64,000 nucleotides of DNA, from positions 1 through 64,000 of IMG/VR virus record IMGVR_UViG_3300011115_000879. One strand, given 5' to 3'. Below, piece after piece: positions 24,939 to 48,471 of this stretch; position 1 is the stretch's first letter; each line of letters begins with the position of its first letter. The notes under the pieces were generated by a model. The model saw only the letters and a program-made list of their open reading frames with translations, did not search any database and was not told the origin of the DNA. The position numbers were made by a program, and so were the translations under genes. Source of the DNA: a virus.

Positions 24939-25010
24939 AGTCAGGTGGCGTAAATGGAAACGCCCCACCATAGTAGGTGGGAGATGTAGGTTCGATTCCT
25001 ATCCTGACCG
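24939..25010 (+). ncRNA. tRNA-like RNA (AGTCAGG family) with 6-nt anticodon loop
   Basis: AGTCAGG/CCTGACC; D arm GCGT..ACGC; CCACC-ATAGTA-GGTGG; GTAGG-TTCGATT-CCTAT. Confidence 0.72.
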
Positions 25011-25104
25011 CGCAAAAAACTATTAGGTGAAGTTTCCTTACCACGACAAATTCGTCCACTGTGACTATATCGTATGGGTTTTTGATACCTACTTTAATTT
25101 AGAT

Positions 25105-35034: not shown

Positions 35035-35223
35035 ATGAAAACAAATTTAAAAGCAGCTGGTATCACATTATTGATTTTATTAATAATTGTAGGATTTATA
35101 TATGGTTTACTATTCTATACAAGCATAATGGTTCCAATTGGGATGTGTATATCGGGAGCGGTTATTGTGGTATGTATCTTTAATATGGTAAAACTTACTT
35201 TACTTAATGATCGGCAAGATTAA
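35035..35223 (+). CDS. 2-TM small protein
   Basis: Two hydrophobic segments. Confidence 0.55.
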   Translation: MKTNLKAAGITLLILLIIVGFIYGLLFYTSIMVPIGMCISGAVIVVCIFNMVKLTLLNDRQD

Positions 35224-35239
35224 TTTTGTATATTCAATT

Positions 35240-35449
35240 ATGAAAAAAAGTAAAAAAGAACCACTTGAACGTAAATGGTTTATTGTTATGAATTCACAAT
35301 TAGAATATTTTGCTGGGTTATTATATGGTGGGCAAATAGTATGGTCTAGAGACTATGATGATGCTAAACCATTAGATTTAGAATCAAAATTCATTACTTT
35401 AAAGAGTATGAGTTATGGCGAAGAACTTATCTTAGATTACATAAAATAA
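35240..35449 (+). CDS. Hypothetical protein
   Basis: ATG 35240 directly after the promoter motif. Confidence 0.6.
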   Translation: MKKSKKEPLERKWFIVMNSQLEYFAGLLYGGQIVWSRDYDDAKPLDLESKFITLKSMSYGEELILDYIK

Positions 35450-35454
35450 AAGTT

Positions 35455-35667
35455 ATGACACCAGTTTATCCAAAAGAACATCCTGAACGTAGACAAGAAG
35501 TACTAAATAAGTTCTATAAGCAAGTTAGAGAAACAAGATGGGATACACCTGAAGAGAAACCTATCTCCCTTCGTGGTCGTAAGCCTAAAAAGATAGAATT
35601 ACCTGTAATCAATCAATTACCTCAAACTAAAAGTACTAAAATCAAAGATAGATATAATTGGTTATAA
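35455..35667 (+). CDS. Hypothetical protein with RGRKP (AT-hook-like) motif
   Basis: SLRGRKPKK. Confidence 0.6.
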   Translation: MTPVYPKEHPERRQEVLNKFYKQVRETRWDTPEEKPISLRGRKPKKIELPVINQLPQTKSTKIKDRYNWL

Positions 35668-35713
35668 AAGGCAAGACTAATTTTGTATATTCAATTAAAT
35701 AAAAAATAAAGCT

Positions 35714-35950
35714 ATGAATATTAACGTTGATATTGATATAGAGGATATGTTATATGAAATGTCTAAAAGGGAAAAACAGCAACTAGCAGATGATCTCTAT
35801 AACGATGGATATATACCTAAGCCATTTCAAAATGAAGCACATAGATACACAGACGATTTTAGTGATGCTTGTAGAAAACTAATAGGTCAAGCTTGGCGAT
35901 TAACTAGAGAAGAAGAAGAATATATTATTAACATATCAAAACGATTTTAA
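35714..35950 (+). CDS. Hypothetical protein
   Basis: Own promoter motif at 35670. Confidence 0.65.
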   Translation: MNINVDIDIEDMLYEMSKREKQQLADDLYNDGYIPKPFQNEAHRYTDDFSDACRKLIGQAWRLTREEEEYIINISKRF

Positions 35951-35951
35951 T

Positions 35952-36068
35952 ATGGGACAAGGTAAACGAAAGGATCAAATAGATTCAAGTGAACGAATAG
36001 CTGATATTTGTATTATAGTTTGTGGTGTATCACTACTTATAGCTATACTAATTAACTTATTAAAATAG
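35952..36068 (+). CDS. 38-aa membrane peptide
   Basis: MGQGKRKDQIDSSERIADICIIVCGVSLLIAILINLLK. Confidence 0.55.
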   Translation: MGQGKRKDQIDSSERIADICIIVCGVSLLIAILINLLK

Positions 36069-36108
36069 GCAAAGTAAAAATTGTATATTTATTTCAAATA
36101 AAAAAATT

Positions 36109-36315
36109 ATGACTACTAATAATAATAATAACTTACAATTGAAATGGGATTGTTTGATGATTGAAAGAATGGTTAATGATTTAGTGTTAAAAGGTATACA
36201 TAAGAATGAAGATTTAGTTGCTGCTGTAGATGAATTCTATCCACCAACTACTGAATTTGAAATGGAACACTACTCAGAAGCTATTATTTATGCTAAATTA
36301 TCATTATTAAATTAG
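36109..36315 (+). CDS. Hypothetical protein
   Basis: Own promoter motif at 36068. Confidence 0.6.
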   Translation: MTTNNNNNLQLKWDCLMIERMVNDLVLKGIHKNEDLVAAVDEFYPPTTEFEMEHYSEAIIYAKLSLLN

Positions 36316-36363
36316 GCAAAATAAAAATCGTACATTCACCTCGAACCAAAAATAAAATAAAAT

Positions 36364-36546
36364 ATGGCTATTCAAACGAAAGATCAAGCGCAAGGTAAAG
36401 TAGATAAGAAATTAGACAGAGTATTGAATAAGCCTAAAAAGATTGTTCCATTGATGGAACGTAATTTTAACGATTTAGCTACATTGGAAGAACAATTTGA
36501 GTGGTTAAAACGTAAGCAACGCCAAAAAGATAGGGAGGCAAAATAA
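36364..36546 (+). CDS. Hypothetical protein
   Basis: Flanked by two identical 39-bp promoter repeats. Confidence 0.65.
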   Translation: MAIQTKDQAQGKVDKKLDRVLNKPKKIVPLMERNFNDLATLEEQFEWLKRKQRQKDREAK

Positions 36547-36584
36547 AAATCGTACATTCACCTCGAACCAAAAAATAATAAGTT

Positions 36585-37376
36585 ATGTCAAACGAATTAA
36601 ATTCAACCGCAGTAATGTCTAACAACAGTTATTCATTAGATCAAATCAAGTCAATAGCTCCATCAGTGTTTACTGTTGATAAAGCTGCTCATTTAACGGA
36701 TAAGTATATCCAAACTCCAACATCCCGTGTTGTAGAGGATTTAATGGCTTTAGGATGGCAAGTAACTAAAGCACAAGAAGTTAAAGCACGTAAAGGTAAA
36801 GGATTCCAAAAACATATGGTTGTGTTTCGCAACCCAGATATTATGATTAAGGGTAAAGGTGGTGATGATTCATTCCCACAAATTATATTAACTAATAGTC
36901 ATGATGGTAAAGCAGCATTTAATTTTAGGGTAGGTATTTTCAGATTAATCTGCAGTAACGGTTTAGTTATTAGTGATGCTGATTTTAATAATGTATCTAT
37001 TCGTCATATTAATTATACATTTGAGACATTACAAACTAAAATTGGTGAAGTAATTACTAAATTACCTGGTTTAGTTGCTAAAATTAATTTATTCAAATCA
37101 ACTCAATTAAGTGAGACAGCAATGGCTGAATTTGCTATTAAAGCCGCTTCATTACGTACTAAACAAAGTACAAATGTAGTAGAATTATTAAGAGCAGAAC
37201 GTGACTTAGATAGAGGTAATGATCTATGGACTGTATTTAATCGTGTTCAAGAGAAAATAATTAGCGGTGGGTTTGGTTATGGTAGGAAAAATCGTAAGGC
37301 AAGGTCAATTAAAAACTTTCAACAAGATATTAAGTTGAATGAAGAATTATTTGAATTAGCCGAGACTTATCTATAG
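36585..37376 (+). CDS. DUF932/DUF945-family protein
   Basis: APSVF, KHMVVFR, LTNSHDG, GIFRLICSNGL, LWTVFNRVQE. Confidence 0.85.
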   Translation: MSNELNSTAVMSNNSYSLDQIKSIAPSVFTVDKAAHLTDKYIQTPTSRVVEDLMALGWQVTKAQEVKARKGKGFQKHMVVFRNPDIMIKGKGGDDSFPQIILTNSHDGKAAFNFRVGIFRLICSNGLVISDADFNNVSIRHINYTFETLQTKIGEVITKLPGLVAKINLFKSTQLSETAMAEFAIKAASLRTKQSTNVVELLRAERDLDRGNDLWTVFNRVQEKIISGGFGYGRKNRKARSIKNFQQDIKLNEELFELAETYL

Positions 37377-37382
37377 TAAAAT

Positions 37383-37416
37383 AAGGGGGATGGCAACGTC
37401 CCCCTTTTACATTTAA
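37383..37416 (+). terminator. Terminator hairpin overlapping the promoter motif
   Basis: AAGGGGGATG-GCAA-CGTCCCCCTT-TTACATTTA. Confidence 0.75.
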
Positions 37417-37433
37417 TCAAACAAAAATAAGTT

Positions 37434-37976
37434 ATGAAAAAAGTATTAGTAATTCATCCAAACGACAGTAGTACCGATTTTTTAAAACCGATATACGCTA
37501 ATATACCTAACGCTACTGTTATTAGAGGTGGGATGACTAGAGCTGATGTGGATCAAGAAATTATCAAGCATGATCGTATTATAATGTTAGGACATGGTTC
37601 ACCAGGTGGTTTATTTTCTATAGGTGAATTTGAAGGTAGTTATGGATTTATTATCAGTCATGGTACAGCAGATTTACTAAGAGATAAAGAATGTATATTC
37701 ATTTGGTGTAATGCAGATAAATTTGTTAAGGAACATAACCTAAAAGGTTTATATAGCGGGATGTTTATTAGCGAAGTTGGTGAAGCGTTTTATTGTGAAA
37801 CACCAGCATCACAAGAAGTAGTAACTGAATCGAATGATTATTTTGCTAATGAATTAGGTAAAGTAAGTAATTTAGATTTAAACGAAATACATAATTACAT
37901 CAAAACCAATTACGGTATATTAGCTGAGAGTAATGATGTAGCAAATTACAATAACAATAGAATATATTTAGTATGA
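37434..37976 (+). CDS. Hypothetical protein, possible caspase/gingipain-like (clan CD) fold
   Basis: RIIMLGHG and IFIWCNA spacing resembles a His-Cys dyad. Confidence 0.5.
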   Translation: MKKVLVIHPNDSSTDFLKPIYANIPNATVIRGGMTRADVDQEIIKHDRIIMLGHGSPGGLFSIGEFEGSYGFIISHGTADLLRDKECIFIWCNADKFVKEHNLKGLYSGMFISEVGEAFYCETPASQEVVTESNDYFANELGKVSNLDLNEIHNYIKTNYGILAESNDVANYNNNRIYLV

Positions 37977-38233
37977 TAATAACATTAATAGTTGTTTTAT
38001 TTGTAATAATTCTAGGAATGGGACGTCATATTAAGAAGATAACAGATCAATTAGAATTATTAGATAGAGAACAACATGATCAAAATAAAGAAATAGCAAT
38101 ATTAATGAAAAATCATTTAAGACATCAAGGAATGTTATTACAACATAGTGAAGTATTAATGTATTTAGCTGAACGAGATGAAACATTAAAGAAATATACT
38201 ATAAAATATTCAGGTATAGTAGGAGAAGCATAA
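37973..38233 (+). CDS. TM plus coiled-coil hypothetical protein
   Basis: N-terminal TM. Confidence 0.6.
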   Translation: MIITLIVVLFVIILGMGRHIKKITDQLELLDREQHDQNKEIAILMKNHLRHQGMLLQHSEVLMYLAERDETLKKYTIKYSGIVGEA

Positions 38234-38264
38234 TTTATCCATATTTATAAAAAACAAAAATCAT

Positions 38265-38435
38265 ATGGCATCAGCACAAACAGAAATGAAAGTAATTAGC
38301 GTATTATTAGAGGAAGCAATGGATAATGGATTAGAAGTAGAAGTTGTATATGCCGCCTTAAAGGCAATGAGAGAAGATGATGCTATTACACCAGCACAAG
38401 CGTTTCAGGTTGGTATGGATGAATGGGTTAAGTAA
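38265..38435 (+). CDS. 56-aa hypothetical protein (not in ORF track)
   Basis: MASAQTEMKVISVLLEEA...EWVK; ATATTTAT at 38241. Confidence 0.6.
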   Translation: MASAQTEMKVISVLLEEAMDNGLEVEVVYAALKAMREDDAITPAQAFQVGMDEWVK

Positions 38436-38518
38436 TCACATAAGCACTCAACATAAAAGATAAAGTGGCTAGGCAAAATTGCCTAGCTATCTTTATGTTA
38501 ACCAAAAAATAAAAAATT

Positions 38519-38710
38519 ATGAGTGTAAGATTAGTGCAAAAAGAAACAACGTACGAAGTAAATTTTAATGGTGATGAATATCAAGTCACAGTAATGGAAG
38601 ATAATATTAGTGTTGGATATACAGTTTATGATGTATTTGATGAGAATGGTGAGTTAGTAGAAGGTGATTTAGAAAGTGCAGTGATTAGTTATTTAGAAGA
38701 AAATAGTTAG
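38519..38710 (+). CDS. Acidic hypothetical protein
   Basis: Own hairpin-embedded promoter at 38472. Confidence 0.65.
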   Translation: MSVRLVQKETTYEVNFNGDEYQVTVMEDNISVGYTVYDVFDENGELVEGDLESAVISYLEENS

Positions 38711-38760
38711 GACGGCAAAATAAGAATCGTACATTCACGTTAACCAAAAAATAATAAGTT

Positions 38761-39591
38761 ATGAACCAAGAAAGTAAAAAAAGAGGTCGTCCGTCAAAAG
38801 TACAGAACGTTACCTATGTCCCGTCATTAATTGACTTTTCAAACATTACAAAGTTAAATGAACTTAACATTGATAAAAAGATGTTAGAAGTAATGAAAAG
38901 TGGTTTACCTATAGATGAGTTGTTATCTGAAGAAGGTGGTATACCATGTGCTTCAAATTACATGATGATCGGTGATCCAGGAGTAGGTAAAACTACAGTA
39001 TTATTAGATTTATTATCAGCAGTCCAAAACAAAGGTCGTAAATGTTTATTCATAAGCGGCGAAATGGGACGTAAACAAATGTTCAAATATACAGAACGAT
39101 TCAAGCAGTTCGGTATTATACAAACATTATTCATGGCTGATTATATGTCATATAACACTAAAGACACAATTGAACAAGTATTAAATATGGGATGGGATTG
39201 TGTGTTGATTGATAGTGCAGCTGAAATAATCGATGGTGTACGTGATGATAATGGATGGGATAGAAAAACAGCTGAGGCATGGTTCGTTGATATATGCATC
39301 AAGCATAATAAGGGTGAAAATGAAGGTACTAAATTTACATCATTCCTTGCCATCCAACAAGTAACTAAAGCAGGTGAATTTGTAGGTAGTAATAAATTAA
39401 AACATCTATTCGATGCTATGGGTGAAATGAGACGTCAATCCGAGAAAGAAGGCGGAGATACTTATATTACATTTAGTAAGAATAGAAACGGAAATGCAGG
39501 TATTAAATTCAATTATCAATTAAACAACGATTCAATATATTATGGTAAAGTGGTTAAAGAAGAAAATGAAGATGATAGTGAGGCAGAATAA
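38761..39591 (+). CDS. RadA/Sms-like RecA-fold ATPase with N-terminal AT-hook
   Basis: KKRGRPSK; GDPGVGKT; ISGE; LIDS; QVTKAGEFVG..LKHLFD; KNR. Confidence 0.8.
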   Translation: MNQESKKRGRPSKVQNVTYVPSLIDFSNITKLNELNIDKKMLEVMKSGLPIDELLSEEGGIPCASNYMMIGDPGVGKTTVLLDLLSAVQNKGRKCLFISGEMGRKQMFKYTERFKQFGIIQTLFMADYMSYNTKDTIEQVLNMGWDCVLIDSAAEIIDGVRDDNGWDRKTAEAWFVDICIKHNKGENEGTKFTSFLAIQQVTKAGEFVGSNKLKHLFDAMGEMRRQSEKEGGDTYITFSKNRNGNAGIKFNYQLNNDSIYYGKVVKEENEDDSEAE

Positions 39592-39628
39592 TAATCGTAC
39601 ATTCACGTTAACCAAAAAATATAAAAAC

Positions 39629-40450
39629 ATGAAAAAAGAATTCAAAGTAGGCGACAAAGTAGTAATTAGTAAAAAATCTAGATTCTATGGAGATCATTAT
39701 TCAAATCCAACAGATGTGGACGGCACAATCACTAAGATTAGAGATGATTATGAAGGTCCTTTTAATGTTTTAGATATTAAAGTAGAATGGGATAATGGAA
39801 TGAAAAATTCATACAGTGAAATTGATTTAGAATTGGCAAAACAACAGTCATACATTCACGATAACCAAAACGATAAAAATATGAATAAAGCATTTAAAGT
39901 AGGTGATAAAGTAATGATTGATAGTAGTTCCGAATACTATAGTGATAACGATACTTCAAATCCAAGAGATGTGGAAGGCACAATTACTGAAATTGAAGGT
40001 GAGGATTGGCTTGGTGGATTGGGTATTATTGTTAAATGGGATAACGGAAAAATAAATGGCTACAATAAAGTAGATTTAAAATTGGCAAAGAAAGAATCGT
40101 ATATTCATGATGAAGAAAAAATTAACCAACCATTAAAACCTAAAGTTATGATTAAAGCAATTACAATTACAGATTTAGATCAAATTAAAGCGTTATGCGA
40201 AGCTATTCCTGGTATTAAATCTCAAGTACAGGATATGTACCCTGAGTTATTTGAAGTACATAAAGCAGGTAATAGATATGTTGATGTGTATGGTACTGAA
40301 TTTATATTAGCAACTGAACAAGGTGCAGTAGCATTAGTTGATTTAGAAACAGGTAAAATAGGTAAAACAGTATATGTTGATGACATTAATGATGTTACAG
40401 AAGATGAAATGGAGTTAGTATATAATGACAAAGAGTATACTTTAGCTTAG
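39629..40450 (+). CDS. Fused protein: two tandem SH3/KOW-like repeats plus C-terminal domain, with internal in-frame starts at 39881 and 40148
   Basis: FKVGDKV..SNP.DV.GTIT.I..V.WDNG..N.Y...DL.LAK twice; each ATG follows a promoter motif. Confidence 0.75.
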   Translation: MKKEFKVGDKVVISKKSRFYGDHYSNPTDVDGTITKIRDDYEGPFNVLDIKVEWDNGMKNSYSEIDLELAKQQSYIHDNQNDKNMNKAFKVGDKVMIDSSSEYYSDNDTSNPRDVEGTITEIEGEDWLGGLGIIVKWDNGKINGYNKVDLKLAKKESYIHDEEKINQPLKPKVMIKAITITDLDQIKALCEAIPGIKSQVQDMYPELFEVHKAGNRYVDVYGTEFILATEQGAVALVDLETGKIGKTVYVDDINDVTEDEMELVYNDKEYTLA

Positions 40451-40530
40451 ATATATTATTGGTTAGGTGGGTGCAGAAATGCGTTCGCCTATCTTTATGC
40501 TTGGCACAACTAAAATCGTATATTCACGTT

Positions 40531-40980
40531 ATGGAATTAGAAAAACGAATAGAGCAATACACACCTGTAAAATATAATCCTTATTATTGGTGGCGTCGTT
40601 TCAAACAACGAGAAACAAAACATCCTTATACAATTCTACAAACCAGAATTGAACATGGTGATTTCGAAGTAAGTGATTACCATTGGTGGATGATGTGGGA
40701 AGATAAATTAGAGCAAGACGCTATATCTAAAGAACGTAACGTAGATAAACAACATGAGTTGAGAGGATTATATGGTGAACGTAAACGACGATTAGCAACT
40801 GACTTTGAAAAAGACGAAGCAAAGATTAAATCAGAAATGTATAAAGCATTTAGAATAGAGTTTAGATTAAACGAAACAGAACTAGAAGATAAAATGATTA
40901 AATTCGACGGAACATTAAGTGAATTTTATTATGAATTAAAAAGTAAGCAACAAAATAAGATAGTATCACTCACGCGCTAG
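40531..40980 (+). CDS. Hypothetical protein
   Basis: YNPYYWWRRF; start moved to ATG 40531 after the promoter at 40503. Confidence 0.65.
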   Translation: MELEKRIEQYTPVKYNPYYWWRRFKQRETKHPYTILQTRIEHGDFEVSDYHWWMMWEDKLEQDAISKERNVDKQHELRGLYGERKRRLATDFEKDEAKIKSEMYKAFRIEFRLNETELEDKMIKFDGTLSEFYYELKSKQQNKIVSLTR

Positions 40981-41017
40981 GCAAGACTACGTATATACAT
41001 TCATTCAAAATTAAGTT

Positions 41018-41098
41018 ATGATAATAGCATTAGTAGTATTATTGATCGTTGTAATTGTCAAGTATATTATATTTGAAATTAAAAATCCGGGAATTTAG
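41018..41098 (+). CDS. 26-aa single-TM peptide
   Basis: MIIALVVLLIVVIVKYIIFEIKNPGI between two promoter motifs. Confidence 0.55.
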   Translation: MIIALVVLLIVVIVKYIIFEIKNPGI

Positions 41099-41142
41099 GC
41101 AAAGTAAATTCATTACATTTAATCAACCAAAACGATAAAAGT

Positions 41143-41352
41143 ATGTATTTAATCAAATTAACACAAGTATCTAAGGCGTTTGTTATTAAAGATACTAATA
41201 CTCGAAGAGAGTATACAGTAACATGGCGTAACTATACACCTAATCCATGGTTTATTGAAGATGAATATGAAGTAGAAATAGATCAGGAAACGGCATTAGG
41301 TGAAGATTTAATAGTGTTAGTACAAGACCAATTTGATGATTGGGCAAAGTAA
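41143..41352 (+). CDS. Hypothetical protein
   Basis: Own promoter at 41098; stop codon inside the next motif. Confidence 0.65.
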   Translation: MYLIKLTQVSKAFVIKDTNTRREYTVTWRNYTPNPWFIEDEYEVEIDQETALGEDLIVLVQDQFDDWAK

Positions 41353-41389
41353 TAGTCATATATTCACATTAACGAAATAAAATAATAGT

Positions 41390-41635
41390 ATGGGTAAGAA
41401 GAAGATGAATAATATAATAACTCAGGACGAAACGAATGATTTACTTCAGCGGGTGAGTGACCTGGAATATATGACAACAACATTGATTAGGGATAATATT
41501 GAGTTGGCTCAATTAAGTAGTGCGATGAAATGCTTGGTTGGCATGTATGAATGTGATATTATTGAGCTGCAAGATGCGCGTTTTTTTGCGCGTTTAAAGC
41601 GCTTTTTTGCGCCGCTTTTTGGTGGTATTAAGTAG
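41390..41635 (+). CDS. Hypothetical protein
   Basis: Own promoter at 41343. Confidence 0.55.
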   Translation: MGKKKMNNIITQDETNDLLQRVSDLEYMTTTLIRDNIELAQLSSAMKCLVGMYECDIIELQDARFFARLKRFFAPLFGGIK

Positions 41636-42057
41636 TGTTTTTGTATCGCAAGGGTGACGAACAATTGTTATGTGTGTATAATTGGATTTTGTGTTAAGGT
41701 ATGTTGTACGTTGTGTATGTGGAATGTTCGTTATGTGGGTGATGTGGCGTGTTGTGGCAGGTACATTTTTAGCCTTGCCTCTCCAAACACTTTTTTAAAG
41801 CAAAAGATATATACGATTTTTTTAGCACAATTTTGTACGTACATTCACTGAGGTAATAAGTTCTTATATTTATCGACGTACAACAGCATTATTTTGTTAT
41901 AAGGAACCGGCCTCGCCACAAGTTGAACGTAACGCTAATAATACTCAGTACACCACATATTTTTTTTGCAAAACTGTTACATAGGTAACGGCTTTCCTAC
42001 TGCTTGAATTGGCAAGATTTTGTTACTACATTCACCACGAACCAAAAATTAAGTGTT

Positions 42058-42702
42058 ATGAGAATTATTGATAAAGATTTTATTGTGGGTGGACATAAAG
42101 TAGGTGTTTACCAAGCGTACGTAGATATCGACCCTAATTTTGTACCAATGGAGCCGGGTGTACGTGTTTTACCAGCAGCTTTTTTTTCACAGAAGGATTT
42201 TTTTACACTCAAACGCCGCTACTTACCCGGTGATAAACCAACGTTCCCACAAGGTGGCTATGAGGTGTTCGGATCGGGAGGTGAGGTTCGCAGCTACGAT
42301 CTAGACGCCGTCATTTTGTATCCAGAAACACGCGCTCAGAAGAAGATCATCGACGCAATGGCTCCAGCTGACCCGGATGCTCCAACTCGTGGGCGTAAGG
42401 CTTCAAGCACACCGAAAGAGATAAAGATAACAAGCGGAAGACGTGGGCGCCCATCACTCAGTCAAGAAGATAAAGCCGCAAAGGAAGAAGCCGCTGCGGT
42501 TAAGGCTTCAAAGTCGGGAGGTAAGCGAGGAAGGCCGGCGCGTGAAGGTGGTCCGAAACCAATGAAGGAAGCAACAGGCGGTAAACGTGGACGCCCTAGA
42601 ATGACCGAGGCAGTTATCGCCCTTAAAGTGGCGGATAAGGCGCTTCGAGCGAGCAAGTCCGGCGGTAAGCGAGGTAGACCAGCAAGTACAAAACGTAAGT
42701 AA
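42058..42702 (+). CDS. Multi-AT-hook DNA-binding protein
   Basis: RRGRP once and KRGRP three times in a basic Ala/Lys-rich tail; start moved to ATG 42058. Confidence 0.75.
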   Translation: MRIIDKDFIVGGHKVGVYQAYVDIDPNFVPMEPGVRVLPAAFFSQKDFFTLKRRYLPGDKPTFPQGGYEVFGSGGEVRSYDLDAVILYPETRAQKKIIDAMAPADPDAPTRGRKASSTPKEIKITSGRRGRPSLSQEDKAAKEEAAAVKASKSGGKRGRPAREGGPKPMKEATGGKRGRPRMTEAVIALKVADKALRASKSGGKRGRPASTKRK

Positions 42703-42707
42703 CAATT

Positions 42708-42731
42708 AGCGCTCGTAAGAGCGCTTTTTTT
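42708..42731 (+). terminator. Intrinsic terminator
   Basis: AGCGCTC-GTAA-GAGCGCT followed by a T run. Confidence 0.85.
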
Positions 42732-42788
42732 ATGCTCGTGTTTGTCACAACTACTGTTGTACATTCATGTTAACCAAAAATTAAGGTT

Positions 42789-42980
42789 ATGATTTACAAA
42801 TTATGCATTTCGAAAAACAGAGTACAGTACCTAAAACAACAACTAGGTGATAATATTTTTGTCACTGATGAGGTTAGAGAAGATAACCTAGCTAGTGTGG
42901 AAGTAACCATCAACGATGACATGGACGCACTGAGTTTGTTCCATGCTGGAGTAATGGTTGGAATGAACGGCTCAGTATAA
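42789..42980 (+). CDS. Hypothetical protein
   Basis: Own promoter at 42744. Confidence 0.65.
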   Translation: MIYKLCISKNRVQYLKQQLGDNIFVTDEVREDNLASVEVTINDDMDALSLFHAGVMVGMNGSV

Positions 42981-43047
42981 ATAAATTAGGGCGGGGCAAA
43001 ATAAATGTTGTACATTCACATCACACAAATAATTAAAAATTAAGGTT

Positions 43048-43371
43048 ATGAGCAAGAAAAAAACAGTAGTAGCACCAGTAGAAACAATCGTAGTTAACAG
43101 TGTAAAAAGAGGCCGCCCAACGCTAGAAGGATCAGCGCGCCAAGCTAAATTAGCAGCACGTGCGGAGCGAGTTGCAGCGGGTGGATCAGTTGAGCGTGGG
43201 CGCCCGAGTAATCCAACGAGTGCTCGTCAAACTCGTCTAGCGGCTAGAGCAGCTAGGCTCGCGAGCGGAGTTGAGGTCAGAGCCGGCCGTCCAAAAGGTA
43301 CAGGTAAAACGGTGGAGGTAGAGGTGAGTGTGGAGCCGGTAGTTGAGGTGGGTGTTGGGGTTGAAGCCTAA
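43048..43371 (+). CDS. AT-hook repeat protein
   Basis: KRGRP, ERGRP, RAGRP separated by duplicated SARQ..LAARA helices. Confidence 0.72.
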   Translation: MSKKKTVVAPVETIVVNSVKRGRPTLEGSARQAKLAARAERVAAGGSVERGRPSNPTSARQTRLAARAARLASGVEVRAGRPKGTGKTVEVEVSVEPVVEVGVGVEA

Positions 43372-43424
43372 CACCCGGGCACAGCCCGCTTCGTACATTC
43401 ACATCGAACCAAAAATTAAAAATT

Positions 43425-43580
43425 ATGTACAGTTTAGATTGTTCTTTTTACACAGCGGAATTTACATGTATCGGTGATTTAGTAACTCACGTTATGCTTT
43501 TAGGTATGGATCCGAATTATGAGATCACTAGAAACGGAAAAGGTATTGGTGAGCAAGCAGCTGATTATCTTCAGTTTTAG
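43425..43580 (+). CDS. 51-aa hypothetical protein (not in ORF track)
   Basis: MYSLDCSFY..GMDPNYEITRNG; own promoter at 43378. Confidence 0.65.
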   Translation: MYSLDCSFYTAEFTCIGDLVTHVMLLGMDPNYEITRNGKGIGEQAADYLQF

Positions 43581-43627
43581 GCACAGTTTTTTTTGTACAT
43601 TCACGTTAACCAAAAAATATAAAGTAT

Positions 43628-43966
43628 ATGAAAGTATCAATTGAGCAAGCAGTAGTAAAAGTAAATGAGTGTATGTCTTCTGTTTTTACCAAGAATGATG
43701 TACTGAATTTGTTACAGAGTATTGAAATGAAAAAGGAAAATCTTGTGACTAAGGAGATGTTAGTGACTTTTGTTACTGACTATGTTGAAACACAAGTTGA
43801 GCGGTTAGATGCTGGGGATATTTTAGATCTTAGTACAGCTGAGTTTGATTTGAATGGTTGTGAGTTAAGTTTAGAAAGTGTTGATATTGACACAAGAGAT
43901 TTCACTAGAAACATTTTAGGAGAGATTGACGAAGCAGTTGATACTTTCTTGAATTACGATCTATAG
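43628..43966 (+). CDS. Acidic hypothetical protein
   Basis: Own promoter at 43580. Confidence 0.65.
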   Translation: MKVSIEQAVVKVNECMSSVFTKNDVLNLLQSIEMKKENLVTKEMLVTFVTDYVETQVERLDAGDILDLSTAEFDLNGCELSLESVDIDTRDFTRNILGEIDEAVDTFLNYDL

Positions 43967-44031
43967 ATAACTTAGAGCGGGGCTCGTCAGAGTCCCGTTC
44001 TTATATTTAATCAAACCAAAAACAATTAGTT

Positions 44032-44223
44032 ATGAATGAGTACGCTTACAACCAGTTATTATCTTTGTTACAACAAGCAGCTGCGATAGCAGAGGAGAAC
44101 AAGGACAATGTTACCAATTTTGATCTCGAGGATCTGGGGCTGTCGCTAGAAGGGATCATCCAGGAGATCGAGGACCTAGGAACATTTGTGGGTGAGGGTG
44201 ATGATGAGGAGTACGATAACTAG
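44032..44223 (+). CDS. Very acidic small protein
   Basis: Own hairpin-embedded promoter at 43986. Confidence 0.6.
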   Translation: MNEYAYNQLLSLLQQAAAIAEENKDNVTNFDLEDLGLSLEGIIQEIEDLGTFVGEGDDEEYDN

Positions 44224-44232
44224 GGGGATAAA

Positions 44233-44304
44233 GCCGCGTTGGTCAAGAGGTTAAGACGCCTCCCTTTCACGGAGGAATCACGGGTTCGAGTCCCGTACGT
44301 GGTA
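44233..44304 (+). tRNA. tRNA-Glu(TTC)
   Basis: CCTCC-CTTTCAC-GGAGG; ACGGG-TTCGAGT-CCCGT. Confidence 0.95.
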
Positions 44305-44361
44305 CAAGTTTTGTTTGGCACAATCAATTTTATACATTCACATTAACCAAAAATTAAGACA

Positions 44362-44574
44362 ATGGAAAAATTATCAAATGCAATCGAAATGTTTTTGTTC
44401 GACATGATCCCATCATTTTTGTATGGTGAGACAATTAGTGGAGTACCGATGAGTCAGGTGTCCAGGGGCTTCAACACCACTCACCCGCCAGTCCAGCTAA
44501 GTGAATTTGAATGGATACAGGAGTTTAGAGTGGGTTCGCTCCACAGAGTTGAGCAACGGGTTTTTTTGGGATAA
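44362..44574 (+). CDS. Hypothetical protein
   Basis: Own promoter at 44317. Confidence 0.6.
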   Translation: MEKLSNAIEMFLFDMIPSFLYGETISGVPMSQVSRGFNTTHPPVQLSEFEWIQEFRVGSLHRVEQRVFLG

Positions 44575-44621
44575 GGCAACGCTTTTTTTGTACATTTATT
44601 ACGAACCAAAAACATTAAATT

Positions 44622-45050
44622 ATGTCTACAAGATCATTAATCGGAAAACAAAACGCAGACAAAACAGTAACGTTTATTTATTGCCACCATGATGGCTACC
44701 CTAGTGGGGTGGGTGATACGCTCATCGAGTCTTACTCCACACCAGAGCAGGTGGATGGTTTACTCGCACTGGGGGATCTGAGTGTACTAGGGAGTGAGCT
44801 GGGTGAGCAACAGGATTTTAATAAACACACCCGTGATTGGTGTTTAGCGTACGGAAGGGATAGGGGTGAGACGGGTACTGAGGCTCAAACAATCGATCAA
44901 GAGATGTACGTGCGTGAGAATTTGAGGGGTGAGGAGTATAAGTATATTTATTCACTAAGCAAGAACTGGGTTTGTTATGGAAATGATGATGATGAGGACG
45001 ATGAGGAGTTCACCATCAAGTATCCAACAACAGAATCCAGTACAACATAA
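44622..45050 (+). CDS. Conserved phage protein (MSTRS..IYCHHDGYP..AYGRDRGE type)
   Basis: Motifs as named; own promoter at 44575. Confidence 0.75.
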   Translation: MSTRSLIGKQNADKTVTFIYCHHDGYPSGVGDTLIESYSTPEQVDGLLALGDLSVLGSELGEQQDFNKHTRDWCLAYGRDRGETGTEAQTIDQEMYVRENLRGEEYKYIYSLSKNWVCYGNDDDEDDEEFTIKYPTTESSTT

Positions 45051-45078
45051 GTTCATACTTTAATTTTAATGGTTAACC

Positions 45079-45110
45079 GGGCCGGAGTTTCTACTCCAGG
45101 CCCTCTCTTT
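45079..45110 (+). terminator. Hairpin/terminator after the inverted leader copy
   Basis: GGGCCGGAGT-TTCT-ACTCCAGGCCC-TCTCTTT. Confidence 0.65.
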
Positions 45111-45165
45111 ATGTTTGTAAGGCAGAATTAATTATGTACATTCACGTTAACCAAAAATTAAAAAT

Positions 45166-45390
45166 ATGATTGTTAAAATTTATCATTACGATTGTTCTTC
45201 AAATGAATTATTAAATGTAGATGTTATTGAGTGTAAAACACAAGAAGAATGTGAGTTAGAGATTATAAAACATCACTACCAAATTGATTATGACAATTGT
45301 AATACGGATTTAAGTGAAGAAGAGTATATTGAGAAATATAAAGTTAGTGACTTACAGTTTTATGAGAACTATGATTATGAAATTTGTTAG
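45166..45390 (+). CDS. Acidic hypothetical protein
   Basis: Own promoter at 45121. Confidence 0.6.
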   Translation: MIVKIYHYDCSSNELLNVDVIECKTQEECELEIIKHHYQIDYDNCNTDLSEEEYIEKYKVSDLQFYENYDYEIC

Positions 45391-45435
45391 TCAGAATTAG
45401 TTATGTATATTCACGTTAACCAAAAATTATTAGTT

Positions 45436-45630
45436 ATGAAAAAGTATTTAGTTGTTTCGTCTGAAAATGGTAATGATTTTTACATTGTAAATGATTTAAA
45501 AGAATTGATTGAAGAAATGTATGAGTTTGAATTAGTACAAAACGGAGAAACGTTTGAAAGTGTGAGTGAAAAATTATATAGATTCTATCAAGTGTTTGAA
45601 ATTGATGGTGAAATTAAAGTATTAAATTAA
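45436..45630 (+). CDS. Hypothetical protein
   Basis: Start moved to ATG 45436 after the promoter at 45390. Confidence 0.6.
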   Translation: MKKYLVVSSENGNDFYIVNDLKELIEEMYEFELVQNGETFESVSEKLYRFYQVFEIDGEIKVLN

Positions 45631-45683
45631 ACGTGGGTAGTCAGAAATGACTACCTATATTTATTCAAACCAAAAATTAAACC

Positions 45684-45845
45684 ATGAAGCAAGAAAAAGA
45701 TTACGCGTTCCAAGTAGTAGTATTCCTAGTATTATTAGTGATAGCAACAACCAGCTGTAGCCGCTATAGAGCAGTAGGATCAGATGGTAGGTGTATGTTT
45801 AAAAAACAAACCAATTATCAAATGACTAGGATAATTCGATTATAA
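45684..45845 (+). CDS. 53-aa putative lipoprotein (not in ORF track)
   Basis: Hydrophobic stretch then TTS-C; own promoter at 45640. Confidence 0.55.
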   Translation: MKQEKDYAFQVVVFLVLLVIATTSCSRYRAVGSDGRCMFKKQTNYQMTRIIRL

Positions 45846-45903
45846 AGCCAGTTGGACGTCAAAACTAGCAGCGTACATTCACATCGAACCAAAAATTAAT
45901 GAT

Positions 45904-46074
45904 ATGGCAAACATGAGCTACTGCAGATTCGAAAACACATACAACGACTTAAAGGACTGCCTTGAACACATTAATGATGAATGTGAAAATGAACGTGATG
46001 AGCGTTACAGACTCAGAATGATTGAGCTATTAGCACACGTACAAGATTCAATCGATTCAGATTATATCGATTAA
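45904..46074 (+). CDS. 56-aa phage protein (NMSYCRFENT type)
   Basis: MANMSYCRFENTYNDLKDC; own promoter at 45858. Confidence 0.7.
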   Translation: MANMSYCRFENTYNDLKDCLEHINDECENERDERYRLRMIELLAHVQDSIDSDYID

Positions 46075-46132
46075 ATAATCAGGGCTAGGCAAAACCAGCA
46101 GCGTACATTCACGTTAACCAAATAATTAGAAC

Positions 46133-46219
46133 ATGAACGAATTAAAGATTAAAATTACAGGCGTTACAATGATGTTAGCCTCAACAGCGTATTTAATAGT
46201 TTATATGCTCAATAATTAA
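46133..46219 (+). CDS. 28-aa TM peptide
   Basis: MNELKIKITGVTMMLASTAYLIVYMLNN; own promoter at 46088. Confidence 0.5.
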   Translation: MNELKIKITGVTMMLASTAYLIVYMLNN

Positions 46220-46276
46220 CAGGGCGGGGCAGAACAATAATCGTACATTTACATCAACCAAAAAAATATAAAGTAT

Positions 46277-46432
46277 ATGAAACAGTTAATCGCTTACAAA
46301 CGCTTCACAATTAAAGTAGTATCTGGATTTATGTTAGGCTGTATAGTCCTGGATGAAGTAATTGGAATAATGATTGGACCAATCCTCATTGAAATTGACT
46401 TCCCCAAACGCGAATCAAGTAATACAATGTAA
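46277..46432 (+). CDS. 51-aa hydrophobic protein
   Basis: Own promoter at 46228. Confidence 0.55.
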   Translation: MKQLIAYKRFTIKVVSGFMLGCIVLDEVIGIMIGPILIEIDFPKRESSNTM

Positions 46433-46488
46433 TCGGGGCTAGTCAGAATAATAAACATACATTTACATCGAACCAAAAATTGAGTATT

Positions 46489-46701
46489 ATGAAATTATTA
46501 AGTGGAATTATCAGTGTAATATTAGGATTCATGTCGTTATTCATCATGTTCGTTAAGGCGAAAACGGATGTAGAAATGGGAGTGGGATTTGGAGTGTTAC
46601 TAGCAGCAATCATCTTTATGTGCTTTATGATCATGGAAGAACAGAAGCAAGAAGTAGAGCGCCTGCGTGGAGTAATACTGAAGAGTAAGGGTATAATCTA
46701 A
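46489..46701 (+). CDS. 2-TM protein
   Basis: ATG 46489 after the promoter at 46442. Confidence 0.6.
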   Translation: MKLLSGIISVILGFMSLFIMFVKAKTDVEMGVGFGVLLAAIIFMCFMIMEEQKQEVERLRGVILKSKGII

Positions 46702-46721
46702 TCCACAGTCGATAGGCGGAT

Positions 46722-46758
46722 AAGTAAGGTGAGCGAGAAATCGCTCGCCATCTTACTT
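46722..46758 (+). terminator. Strong hairpin/terminator
   Basis: AAGTAAGGTGAGCGA-GAAA-TCGCTCGCCATCTTACTT. Confidence 0.7.
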
Positions 46759-46793
46759 GGATACTGGGCTCCGGGGCCGTATATTTACTCCAC

Positions 46794-47113
46794 GATCACC
46801 AACGTTAGTCCTCCATCCACACTGTATTCTTAACGCCCGCTTGGACACTACGTTTGGTGATCTTCCTTATCCTTCATATATTTATGAATGTTAAGAATAT
46901 AGTGCGGAAATAAAGACTCCACTCACATTCCCCAACATCAAACCAAGTACACAACCAGCTGAAAGTGCTGGGAGTTCCCCTAGCGGTGGCGGTAGCTAGG
47001 ATCAGAGCTGAATTCACATTGATGAATTAGCCGGGTTAAAATAAGCACGTGACAACGTTCCACGGTTTATCAGGCCCCGGCGGAACGGCTTCCTGTTAGA
47101 GATACGAGCGGAA
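46794..47113 (+). ncRNA. Candidate structured non-coding element
   Basis: Preceded by TTG-N20-TATATTTA; two interleaved ~18-bp stems plus five further hairpins; no credible ORF. Confidence 0.5.
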
Positions 47114-47142
47114 ATATAAATACAATAACCCCAACCCACGTT

Positions 47143-47361
47143 ATGAATAATAAGCTCAAAAAATCACCATCACCGCTCCGTCTCCACAAATATACTCCAC
47201 CCGAACAAGCACTCATTAATTCCCTATACACCAACGGGCATCTTAAACCCGCAATGATGGAAGTATGGGACCAATTAAAAGCCGGTAATGAGGTTATCCG
47301 CCGCAATCAGCTCAACTTCCACTCACACATAGAACGAGTAATAAAGAACCAGGTAAAATAA
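47143..47361 (+). CDS. Hypothetical protein
   Basis: GTTATG start. Confidence 0.5.
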   Translation: MNNKLKKSPSPLRLHKYTPPEQALINSLYTNGHLKPAMMEVWDQLKAGNEVIRRNQLNFHSHIERVIKNQVK

Positions 47362-47398
47362 AAATTAACCGTCAGAATAATAAGCGTATATTCACGGC

Positions 47399-47632
47399 AT
47401 GAAAAATAAGAACATGACACCAGCAGTAGAAAAAGCGAATGACTTAATCGATGATTACTATAACATGTTAATGGATAATATAGACGATGAGTTCATTAGA
47501 CGATTAGTAGCTATACGGTGTGCATTAAAGGCAGTAGATGAAATAATAAACACGCTCACCAATTCATGGTGCGTGATATCAGATAAGGAAAACTGGGACG
47601 AGGTAAAACAACAATTAGAAAACAGCTATTAA
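47399..47632 (+). CDS. Hypothetical protein, MTP.EKA..AVDEII..W.EVK family
   Basis: Motif shared with 28186 and others; promoter at 47371. Confidence 0.65.
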   Translation: MKNKNMTPAVEKANDLIDDYYNMLMDNIDDEFIRRLVAIRCALKAVDEIINTLTNSWCVISDKENWDEVKQQLENSY

Positions 47633-47642
47633 ACCAACCAAT

Positions 47643-47849
47643 ATGAACTGGATAGAAGTAACAAAGCACTCAGACATCCCAAGTATAATCTACACCGATA
47701 GAATAAAAATACTAATTGAAGACGTTAACGGGTTCATAGGAGTGGGATACTGGAACTCATATGACTGGGTATTAGACACCTATCACCATGATATTGATGG
47801 TGAAATACGCTTCTATAAGATTAAACGATACGCACTAATAGAATTATAA
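47643..47849 (+). CDS. Hypothetical protein
   Basis: MNWIEV.. small phage domain. Confidence 0.6.
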   Translation: MNWIEVTKHSDIPSIIYTDRIKILIEDVNGFIGVGYWNSYDWVLDTYHHDIDGEIRFYKIKRYALIEL

Positions 47850-47867
47850 ACCATTAAACCAACCAAC

Positions 47868-48116
47868 ATGGAAAGAATAAACACAGCACCCACACCCACG
47901 TTTAAAGTAAATGACCGAGTCCAATTCTACACCCAATACAGCGAGCGAGGAAGTGCTCCAACAACAAGTACCATCGAGTATGGAATCATAGAGAAGATAA
48001 ACACCATCACAGCGGAAGTAAGAACACGAGACGGTAAATGGAAACTACGGAGGGGTGAAATGACCCACTACACCGATCCATTTATCGGGTGGGTGGATGA
48101 GGAACCCAGTAAGTAA
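47868..48116 (+). CDS. Hypothetical SH3/KOW-like protein
   Basis: FKVNDRVQF..GIIEKIN..AEV. Confidence 0.55.
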   Translation: MERINTAPTPTFKVNDRVQFYTQYSERGSAPTTSTIEYGIIEKINTITAEVRTRDGKWKLRRGEMTHYTDPFIGWVDEEPSK

Positions 48117-48471
48117 CTAGACGCCCAGCCTATAGATCCGAGGAGCGTGAGCCTTAGAGCTCGCGCTTCCTCTATTGAGATCGAGCCGATAGCGGTTGCG
48201 TGCGGCCCGATAGCGGGGTGGGTGCGGAACGGCCCCACGCTAATCGCGGTACATCGATGGGGCGTGTGCGGCGCGACAAAAGGTATGGGTATTCTCAACA
48301 CACACACGATCTTTAACTATCGACAGTATATACGCATATCCCCATAAACGAACCCCAAATTCCGAAATAACCCTTTCACCCCAAATTCACAAAATCCCAA
48401 CTCTAACTTTTAACAAAATTTTACGTGTCGGCAAGATATATACCGTATATTTATCACATAATACCAAATAA

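Follow-up and report, generated by a model that had tools for sequence, protein, structure and literature searches.

A conserved structured RNA and a putative RNA-RNA pairing module ahead of a small open reading frame in a Flavobacterium-phage-like myovirus

A gene-free gap in the genome of a freshwater myovirus very probably encodes a conserved structured RNA read from the + strand. Its ~165-nt domain with invariant loops appears to define a new, previously undescribed RNA family and is probably the leader of the small open reading frame (ORF) that follows. Comparison of nine lineages further suggests that a short hairpin RNA, transcribed just upstream from the same strand, pairs through its loop with the 5' end of the leader transcript. 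We give this two-transcript model, as a whole, a probability of about 0.5. The most likely interpretation of the sequence comparisons is a built-in RNA lock and key that would control the small gene.

The virus record is a 159.6-kb IMG/VR sequence, and the window analyzed here is its first 64 kb (~30% GC, with every gene on the + strand). The genome encodes GroEL, thymidylate synthase, glycosyltransferases, and T4-like baseplate, sheath, and tube proteins. Among cultured phages, it is closest to the 160-kb Flavobacterium phages vB_FspM_immuto, with which its baseplate wedge shares 46% amino-acid identity. The element lies within a C-rich interval of 440 nt without genes, flanked upstream by a 70-aa membrane-protein gene (46490-46701) and downstream by a 72-aa ORF (47143-47361); GC content is 45-50% in this interval versus ~30% in the genome. 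The initial annotation had seen no credible ORF here, and none of at least 50 aa with a start codon lies inside 46757-47115. The components of the region are the following.

46718-46757, + strand: long hairpin 3' of the upstream gene (46490-46701), terminator-like, without a T-run
46757-46787, + strand: promoter-like box P1, with TTGG at 46757-46760, 19 nt, and TATATTTA at 46780-46787; predicted start ~46792
46794-46862, + strand: hairpin A:A' (46794-46811 with 46843-46862) with a 31-nt loop; proposed small RNA T1
46816-46834, + strand: B, the loop segment complementary to B'
46854-46885, + strand: promoter-like box P2, with TTGG at 46854-46857 inside A', 19 nt, and TATATTTAT at 46877-46885; predicted start 46889
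46863-46876, + strand: pyrimidine/U-rich tail TTCCTTATCCTTCA, 3' of A'; a similar tail occurs in all homologues
46890-46908, + strand: B', complementary to B; predicted 5' end of transcript T2
46909-46933, + strand: C/A-rich linker, mostly unpaired, with conserved ACTCCAC (46916-46922)
46934-47097, + strand: structured 3' domain (model R1, covariation, G-U versus A-C)
46934-37 with 47094-97, + strand: closing stem of the 3' domain, enclosing H1-H5
46954-59 with 46967-72, + strand: helix H1 of the 3' domain
46973-85 with 46994-47009, + strand: helix H2 of the 3' domain
47011-15 with 47024-28, + strand: helix H3 of the 3' domain
47030-51 with 47061-81, + strand: helix H4 of the 3' domain
47082-85 with 47090-93, + strand: helix H5 of the 3' domain
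47104-47142, + strand: pre-ORF segment, with GCGGAAATA (47108-16), then TATAAATA (47115-22), then ACGTTATG
47143-47361, + strand: small ORF of 72 aa, with weak collinear similarity to a family of 64-104 aa ORFs

Eight additional module sequences were recovered from freshwater metagenomes (L097, L011, L108, L110, L112, L117, L120, and L121). L097, a JGI freshwater contig, emerged from a back-translation search that used an open frame spanning the promoter, and L011 from scanning baseplate-anchored loci for box pairs with loop-to-downstream complementarity. Homologues of the small ORF of L011 led to contigs L108/L109, L110, L112/L115, L117-L119, L120, L116 (partial), and L121/L122. The element lies in a hypervariable region and many relatives are without it. 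No match was returned by blastn of 46700-47150 against 50,697 phage records, and BLAST of 46700-47400 in ten related IMG/VR genomes gave only chance matches of 14-30 nt; covariance model R1, described below, found nothing in five of those ten. The contig of the closest relative by baseplate identity (L002, 94%) begins ~1.4 kb downstream of the element. Exact-pattern scans of IMG/VR for B', the upstream hairpin, and H2 gave no hits, and the scan for H4 returned only the contig of L011 itself. A scan of IMG/VR for the CTTCCTT..TATATTTAT box yielded nine matches, all unrelated and in giant-virus and coding contexts, and a back-translation search of JGI metagenomes with the 3' part found no relative. 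Against the 4227 models of Rfam 15, the window region, L097, and L011 produced only chance-level hits to miRNA and snoRNA models (E>1). The window region was searched at E<=10 and had no family at gathering scores or at that cut-off, in line with the annotation of the element as an undescribed structured RNA.

For the 3' domain, RNAalifold, applied to three sequences, recovered the closing stem and five helices, and the covariance model R1 built on this structure comprises 170 positions and 48 pairs. Within 1.1 Mb of sequence from related loci, plus five related genomes, R1 matches homologues only, and it matches each ORF-anchored contig that extends far enough upstream, with 84-186 bits. Among 11 distinct sequences, 90.5% of the cells in the 48 pairs are able to pair, versus 30-47% when partners are slid by 1-3 columns. 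Both-side (compensatory) changes occur in 24 of the 48 pairs, versus 1-7 with slid partners, and none of 500 shuffles equals the observed pairing or covariation score. These helix counts come from an alignment fitted to the structure of R1, in which several of the 11 rows are close kin. The stems covary, while loops and junctions are highly conserved: CATTGA, GGTGGYGG, and ACAACGTTCC are near-invariant loops, joined in this conservation by TAAAATAAG. The hairpins first noted from the letters (CCAGC/GCTGG, CCTAGC/GCTAGG, GAATTCA/TGAATT, and CCGGG..CCCGG) were all found again, and all are supported by covariation. ARAGORN and a tRNA model, used to look for a decayed tRNA inside the 3' domain, detected none there.

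The direction of reading can be approached through wobble pairs. Helix cells contain 44 G-U versus 20 A-C combinations (25 versus 8 in the first five sequences). An excess of G-U over A-C is not expected of DNA or of the opposite strand and therefore points to an RNA from the + strand. The + strand of 46785-47115 folds at -92.3 kcal/mol versus -77.6 +/- 4.9 for dinucleotide shuffles (z -3.0; one shuffle in 100 did as well). On the - strand, the window is again more stable than its shuffles (z -4.0), and L097 is not (z -1.8, 6/100).

Upstream of the 3' domain, all nine lineages share one order of elements, namely box 1, A, loop with B, A', pyrimidine-rich tail, box 2, and B'. The interleaved pairings that the initial annotation had proposed are real, and covariation supports their conservation in the nine homologues. 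In the window, the first stem joins 46794-46809 with 46847-46862 (16 nt ungapped, 81% complementary) and has a bulged extension to 46794-46811 and 46843-46862; the loop complementarity of 46816-46834 with 46890-46908 covers 19 nt at 89%. Hairpin A:A' is kept in 9/9 homologues. Its outer 8 bp read GATCACCA/TGGTGATC in the window versus AGACGCCA/TGGCGTCT in the others, which amounts to four compensatory double changes, and further variants include C-G to U-A in L108 versus L011 and G-U in L110 and L112. MAFFT alignments of the 5' modules placed the A arm of the window out of register, so each 5' module was scored separately and not by column pair counts. A small hairpin had also been drawn around the second box (46866-46878 with 46883-95); it is present in the window, but its conservation was not found in the homologues.

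The B:B' duplex is likewise present in 9/9 homologues, at -19 to -25.7 kcal/mol and with z-scores of -5.2 to -6.9 versus shuffled targets. The sequences of B and B' fall into four unrelated types: CACTRTATTCTKAAC in the window, L117, and L120; GCATTGATGCTTGAAC in L097; CACTCACTTTATCCA in L011, L108, L110, and L112; and TTTACCTGAAC in L121. Combined with the partners of other groups, B reaches only -5 to -13 kcal/mol, and the cross-matrix resolves into specificity groups. Within the group of the window, one pair is G-U in the window, G-C in L117, and A-U in L120, a series that is a signature of + strand RNA, and another pair alternates between U-A and G-C. Energy does not make B' the sole best partner of the loop, as about six other + strand sites in the genome score equally well or better; B' is singled out by its fixed position and by covariation instead. 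The difference in B/B' sequence between otherwise near-identical phages suggests that these segments act as an exchangeable specificity determinant.

Natural recombinants point in the same direction. The flanks of L097 are ~98% identical to those of the window, versus ~45% for the module. In contigs of four freshwater or lake runs, homology to relatives stops precisely where the first TATATTTA ends (46787). The X4 contig retains 46728-46787 and 46917-47131, with the 129-nt A-B-A'-box-B' segment replaced by 128 other letters, and the ACTCCAC linker forms the left boundary of the 3' module at this joint (46787 to 46917). Together, the identical flanks around the diverged module of L097 and the swapped 5' part of X4 suggest that the box and ACTCCAC serve as exchange points for whole modules and for sub-modules.

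Two promoter-like boxes organize the 5' part. In Bacteroidota sigma-A promoters, the -33 element is a TTG located about 19-21 nt upstream of the -7 box. In the lineages compared here, TATATTTA(T) is present in 17/18 boxes when both positions are pooled, and most boxes show this spacing, with TTGG exactly 19 nt upstream in 13/18. For P1, TATATTTA(T) occurs in 9/9 lineages, and TTGG stands at 19 nt in 6/9 and at 24 nt in L110, L112, and L120. For P2, the box is kept in 8/9 lineages (L110 has TGTATTTAT) and TTGG-N19 in 7/9, being absent from L110 and L112. The combined pattern TTGG-N19-TAYATTYA has only five sites in the 159.6-kb genome (25865, 46757, 46854, 116935, and 120540), two of which belong to this element. 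The boxes annotated as a host-type promoter at 46757/46780 fit a Bacteroidota-like promoter (TTGG at 46757, 19 nt, TATATTTA at 46780). The late motif reported between the stems is also there, but it is better described as a further promoter-like box, complete in itself and with a separate TTGG at -19.

In Flavobacterium psychrophilum, the sigma-A -7 box TAnnTTTG spans positions -12 to -5 (PMC9723704). TATATTTA fits TAnnTTT, but its last base is A and not G. Applied here, this geometry would place the start of T1 2-3 nt before A and that of T2 at 46889, one base before B'. In 9/9 lineages, B' begins 4-5 nt 3' of the P2 box. Since B' lies at the predicted transcription start of the second box, the interleaved stems are better read as a small hairpin RNA and the beginning of another transcript than as one pseudoknot; the two-state switch of the initial annotation stays alive as a single-transcript rival.

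Termination signals differ among lineages. In L011 and L108, a canonical terminator (1911-1937 plus a T-run) separates A' from box 2, and another precedes box 1. Both retain a perfect 15-bp B:B' despite the intervening terminator, which favors two separate RNAs. A simple terminator scan did not call the A:A' hairpin of the window (31-nt loop, tail UUCCUUAUCCUUCA, patchy U-tract), so transcripts from P1 may run on through B'. The tail TTCCTTATCCTTCA is a possible weak termination tract for T1. Further upstream, the 3' foot of the long hairpin at 46718-46757 contains the TTGG of promoter 1; this hairpin is near-identical in L097, and L011 has a canonical hairpin with a T-run at the equivalent spot.

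From these features we infer that both boxes fire, that T1 ends before P2, and that the pairing joins two molecules; transcript starts, ends, and strand are likewise read from sequence. The proposed module would consist of two tandem + strand transcription units within 46757-47361. P1 (TTGG-N19-TATATTTA) would produce T1, a short RNA of ~75-90 nt in which hairpin A:A' displays B in its 31-nt loop, followed by the U/C-rich tail. P2, of the same type and with its -33 element inside A', would start T2 exactly at B'; T2 would then comprise B', the C/A-rich linker, the ~165-nt multi-helix domain, and the small ORF (47143-47361). The free 5' end of T2, whose first 18 nt are predicted to be about half unpaired, would pair with the T1 loop over 15-19 bp. 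This duplex would set the fate of T2 through its stability, through processing by a double-strand RNase, or through leader folding: the 5' end could be protected or exposed, an RNase site created, or the leader refolded. The fate of T2 would in turn set the output of the small protein. The odds are roughly even that 46757-47361 forms one accessory regulatory module of this freshwater, Flavobacterium-phage-like myovirus.

The element does not appear to be free-standing, as the 3' domain is followed within ~25-45 nt by an ORF of 64-104 aa in 8/9 homologues. This family shows the pattern MNxxPNEFDEFFSLINTT..KGYIP..basic tract..WDxKIKAYN and has no Pfam or PHROG match, and every ORF-family contig that reaches the upstream region carries the 3' domain directly upstream. 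The ORF of the window is probably a diverged member: its similarity to the family is weak but collinear (TPPEQ-ALINS, NGHLKP, EVWDQLKAGNEVIRRNQ), and a single-sequence protein search with it found no homologue. The terminator scan saw no terminator between the 3' domain and the ORF, and no helix sequestering the start site was found. An rpoS-like switch, with the 5' end of T2 pairing to the ORF initiation region, was considered and rejected (z -1.1 to +1.4). B' lies ~235-250 nt upstream of the ATG at 47143, and this distance, along with the lack of initiation-region pairing, leaves no simple route from pairing to translation visible. The H4 loop AACGUU and ACGUUAUG at the start codon are both invariant and palindromic; that they pair with each other is offered as an idea only.

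Further repeats surround the ORF. The copy of GCGGAAATA at 47108-16 is a direct repeat of 46904-12. More generally, in the window and its homologues, the 9-14 nt just after B' recur right before the ORF, with a repeat sequence that differs from lineage to lineage. An 11-nt direct repeat, GAATAATAAGC (47145-47155 and 47375-47385), brackets a 230-nt segment with the ORF, and L097, in which the RNA module is present and the ORF absent, has a single copy. This difference is an indel that arose by recombination between the GAATAATAAGC repeats.

A serious rival, with a limited but real chance of being correct, holds that only P1 fires and that 46792-47142 is one long 5' leader of the ORF. In this case, A:A' and B:B' would be alternative or partly coexisting, pseudoknot-like switch conformations, and the second TATATTTAT would be an RNA or spacing element and not a promoter. 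It owes its weight to the window's A:A', which is no textbook terminator, and to a second box that has degenerated in L110 and has no TTGG either there or in L112; the minimum-energy fold, in which B:B' takes the place of A:A' in the window and A:A' forms in L097, also suits it. Against a single transcript stand the canonical terminators that separate A' from a perfectly paired B' in L011 and L108, the exact coincidence of B' with the start predicted from the second box in every lineage, and the separate TTGG-N19 of that box in 7/9. Moreover, a 15-19 bp helix within a closed loop, with a linker of 4-12 nt, would probably be sterically and topologically hard to form. The 3' domain could instead be a stand-alone functional RNA (ligand- or protein-binding, a decoy, or a ribozyme), with T1/B' tuning its level and a purely positional link to the ORF. 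The RNA without ORF in L097, the highly conserved loops and junctions between covarying stems, and the missing pairing of the 5' end with the initiation region would all suit such a role. We consider it doubtful, given an ORF family that follows closely in 8/9 lineages, the absence of a visible terminator in between, and the lack of a match to any known RNA class.

A DNA-level element, in which interleaved inverted repeats in single-stranded or cruciform DNA would mark an origin, a packaging or injection signal, or a recombination site, is very improbable. In its favor, DNA contains the long near-perfect inverted repeats just as RNA does, the - strand of the window also beats its shuffles, and the module boundaries act as recombination points. 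The initial annotation had listed a single-stranded DNA structure such as an origin or injection-stop signal, a suggestion countered by the 44:20 balance of G-U over A-C in the helices and by the G-U intermediate at one B:B' pair. The - strand of L097 is unremarkable, the region is GC-rich without an easily unwound tract, and the element is absent from ten related genomes by BLAST (from five of them also by R1), which excludes an essential origin. A T4-type replication origin combines a promoter with an AT-rich unwinding tract and is essential to the phage, in contrast with the 45-50% GC found here and the absence from ten relatives. Lack of any function, with the repeats being a decayed gene or chance palindromes of a fast-evolving early region, is scarcely credible. 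Such decay would suit the hypervariable surroundings and the many relatives without the element; yet ~48 + 30 base pairs are kept in nine homologues through many compensatory changes, no open frame is present, and covariation already contradicts it.

Returning to the two-transcript model, its control logic appears closest to that of the same-strand antisense RNAs c4 of phages P1/P7 and CI of P4. The c4 RNA belongs to the immI region of P1 and P7 (RF01695; Citron & Schuster 1990, as cited in PMC2864571). Like c4, the proposed T1 is a small hairpin RNA upstream of its target on the same strand, with loop sequences complementary to downstream boxes (here in 9/9 lineages). Four differences set the systems apart. 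The c4 covariance model RF01695 has no match at E<=10 in the window region, nor at E<=1 in L097 and L011; c4 targets the icd/ant ribosome-binding region, whereas B' would form the very 5' terminus of a leader of ~250 nt; c4 is excised from the same transcript, whereas a second promoter-like box precedes the target here; and the phage here is a large myovirus of the virulent type, in contrast to a temperate plasmid prophage. In P1/P7 heteroimmunity, complementary boxes differ between related phages and set specificity. The B/B' boxes described here vary among related phages in the same manner.

The CI RNA of P4 (seqA/seqB/seqC) is a small stable RNA with complementary same-strand leader boxes that covary between relatives, and it causes premature termination of its own leader. 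Covarying same-strand leader boxes are shared with the present module, as is the proposed action of the small RNA on transcripts of the same region. The module differs in having two boxes instead of three, a partner at the predicted transcript start, and no identified termination target. Plasmid antisense RNAs (CopA/CopT of R1, RNA I/RNA II of ColE1, and hok/sok) come from the opposite strand, where complementarity is automatic. They resemble the proposed pairing in that contact between a loop and a single-stranded end seeds a long duplex, in the use of a constitutive, dosage-dependent promoter for the regulator, and in specificity groups reminiscent of incompatibility groups. With both RNAs on one strand, unlike in the plasmid systems, it must be selection that preserves the complementarity, a conclusion borne out by the covariation. 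Structured 5' leaders include riboswitches and phage translational operators such as the T4 regA/gene 32 sites. The 3' domain resembles them in its multi-helix junction, its invariant unpaired nucleotides, and its covarying stems directly upstream of a coding region (8/9 lineages), but it matches none of the 4227 Rfam models, and no expression platform (terminator or sequestering helix) was found. Given the lack of a model match, a target that is no ribosome-binding site, and the second promoter-like box before the target, the module is not a member of the c4, P4 CI, or plasmid systems. Its proposed mode of control is of a familiar type, and the RNA family behind it appears to be new.

Regulatory RNAs of large virulent Bacteroidota phages are essentially unknown, and same-strand antisense RNAs have so far been textbook curiosities of P1, P7, and P4. 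The comparative support assembled here (~80 conserved base pairs and four interchangeable specificities) offers a testable case of RNA-RNA control in uncultured freshwater phages, and the R1 covariance model can be used to find further members. Near-identical flanks around swapped B/B' suggest selection on pairing specificity. If true, such selection would bear on how co-infecting phage strains avoid cross-regulation. A bolder and unlikely extension is that B/B' are swapped among co-circulating strains so that each small RNA governs only its own leader. Such an RNA-only lock and key would amount to a kin-recognition or incompatibility system in a virulent-type, jumbo-sized myovirus, with the 3' domain as a new class of ligand- or protein-sensing RNA reading the state of the cell.

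Several other features of the locus deserve mention. Between 35 and 48 kb, about 35 single-gene cassettes each carry GKCA-N12-TAYATTYA and a AACCAAAAA leader. This combination (GKCA-N12-TAYATTYA with ..AACCAAAAA..) occurs 37 times genome-wide, always on the + strand and mostly 5' of small early-region genes. TATATTTAT without the GKCA box is found 5' of many structural genes as a second promoter-like class (window 35213-48453 and genome-wide). In several relatives, the RNA module stands directly 3' of a tRNA-like gene with a long variable arm (L110 600-720, L112 990-1095, and L117 830-915), and L108 has only a remnant resembling the 3' half of such a gene (2460-2520). The tRNA of the window nearest to the module is a Glu tRNA at 44233-44305.

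A second GC-rich, gene-free element lies at 48117-48350. It shows 70-89% identity in at least 15 related loci, a far wider spread than that of the RNA module, and contains three GATAGCG(G) repeats ~10-11 nt apart followed by the invariant blocks ..AATTGCGGTCCATCGATGGGG.., TTCTCAAC, and ATCGACAGTATATACGCATAT. As an RNA, its consensus folds weakly (-4 kcal/mol, 2 compensatory pairs), and an Rfam search gave no match; it looks like an origin- or operator-like DNA array for protein binding. The GC-rich ORFs at 42004-42702 and 43048-43371 (232 and 107 aa), without PHROG match, explain two local GC peaks and are rich in GGKRGRP/RGRP repeats that look like AT-hooks. Lastly, ARAGORN calls a tRNA at 24939-25011 with an undetermined two-base anticodon '(ag)', to which the Rfam tRNA model gives only 41 bits; this is an odd or degenerate tRNA inside the phage tRNA cluster.
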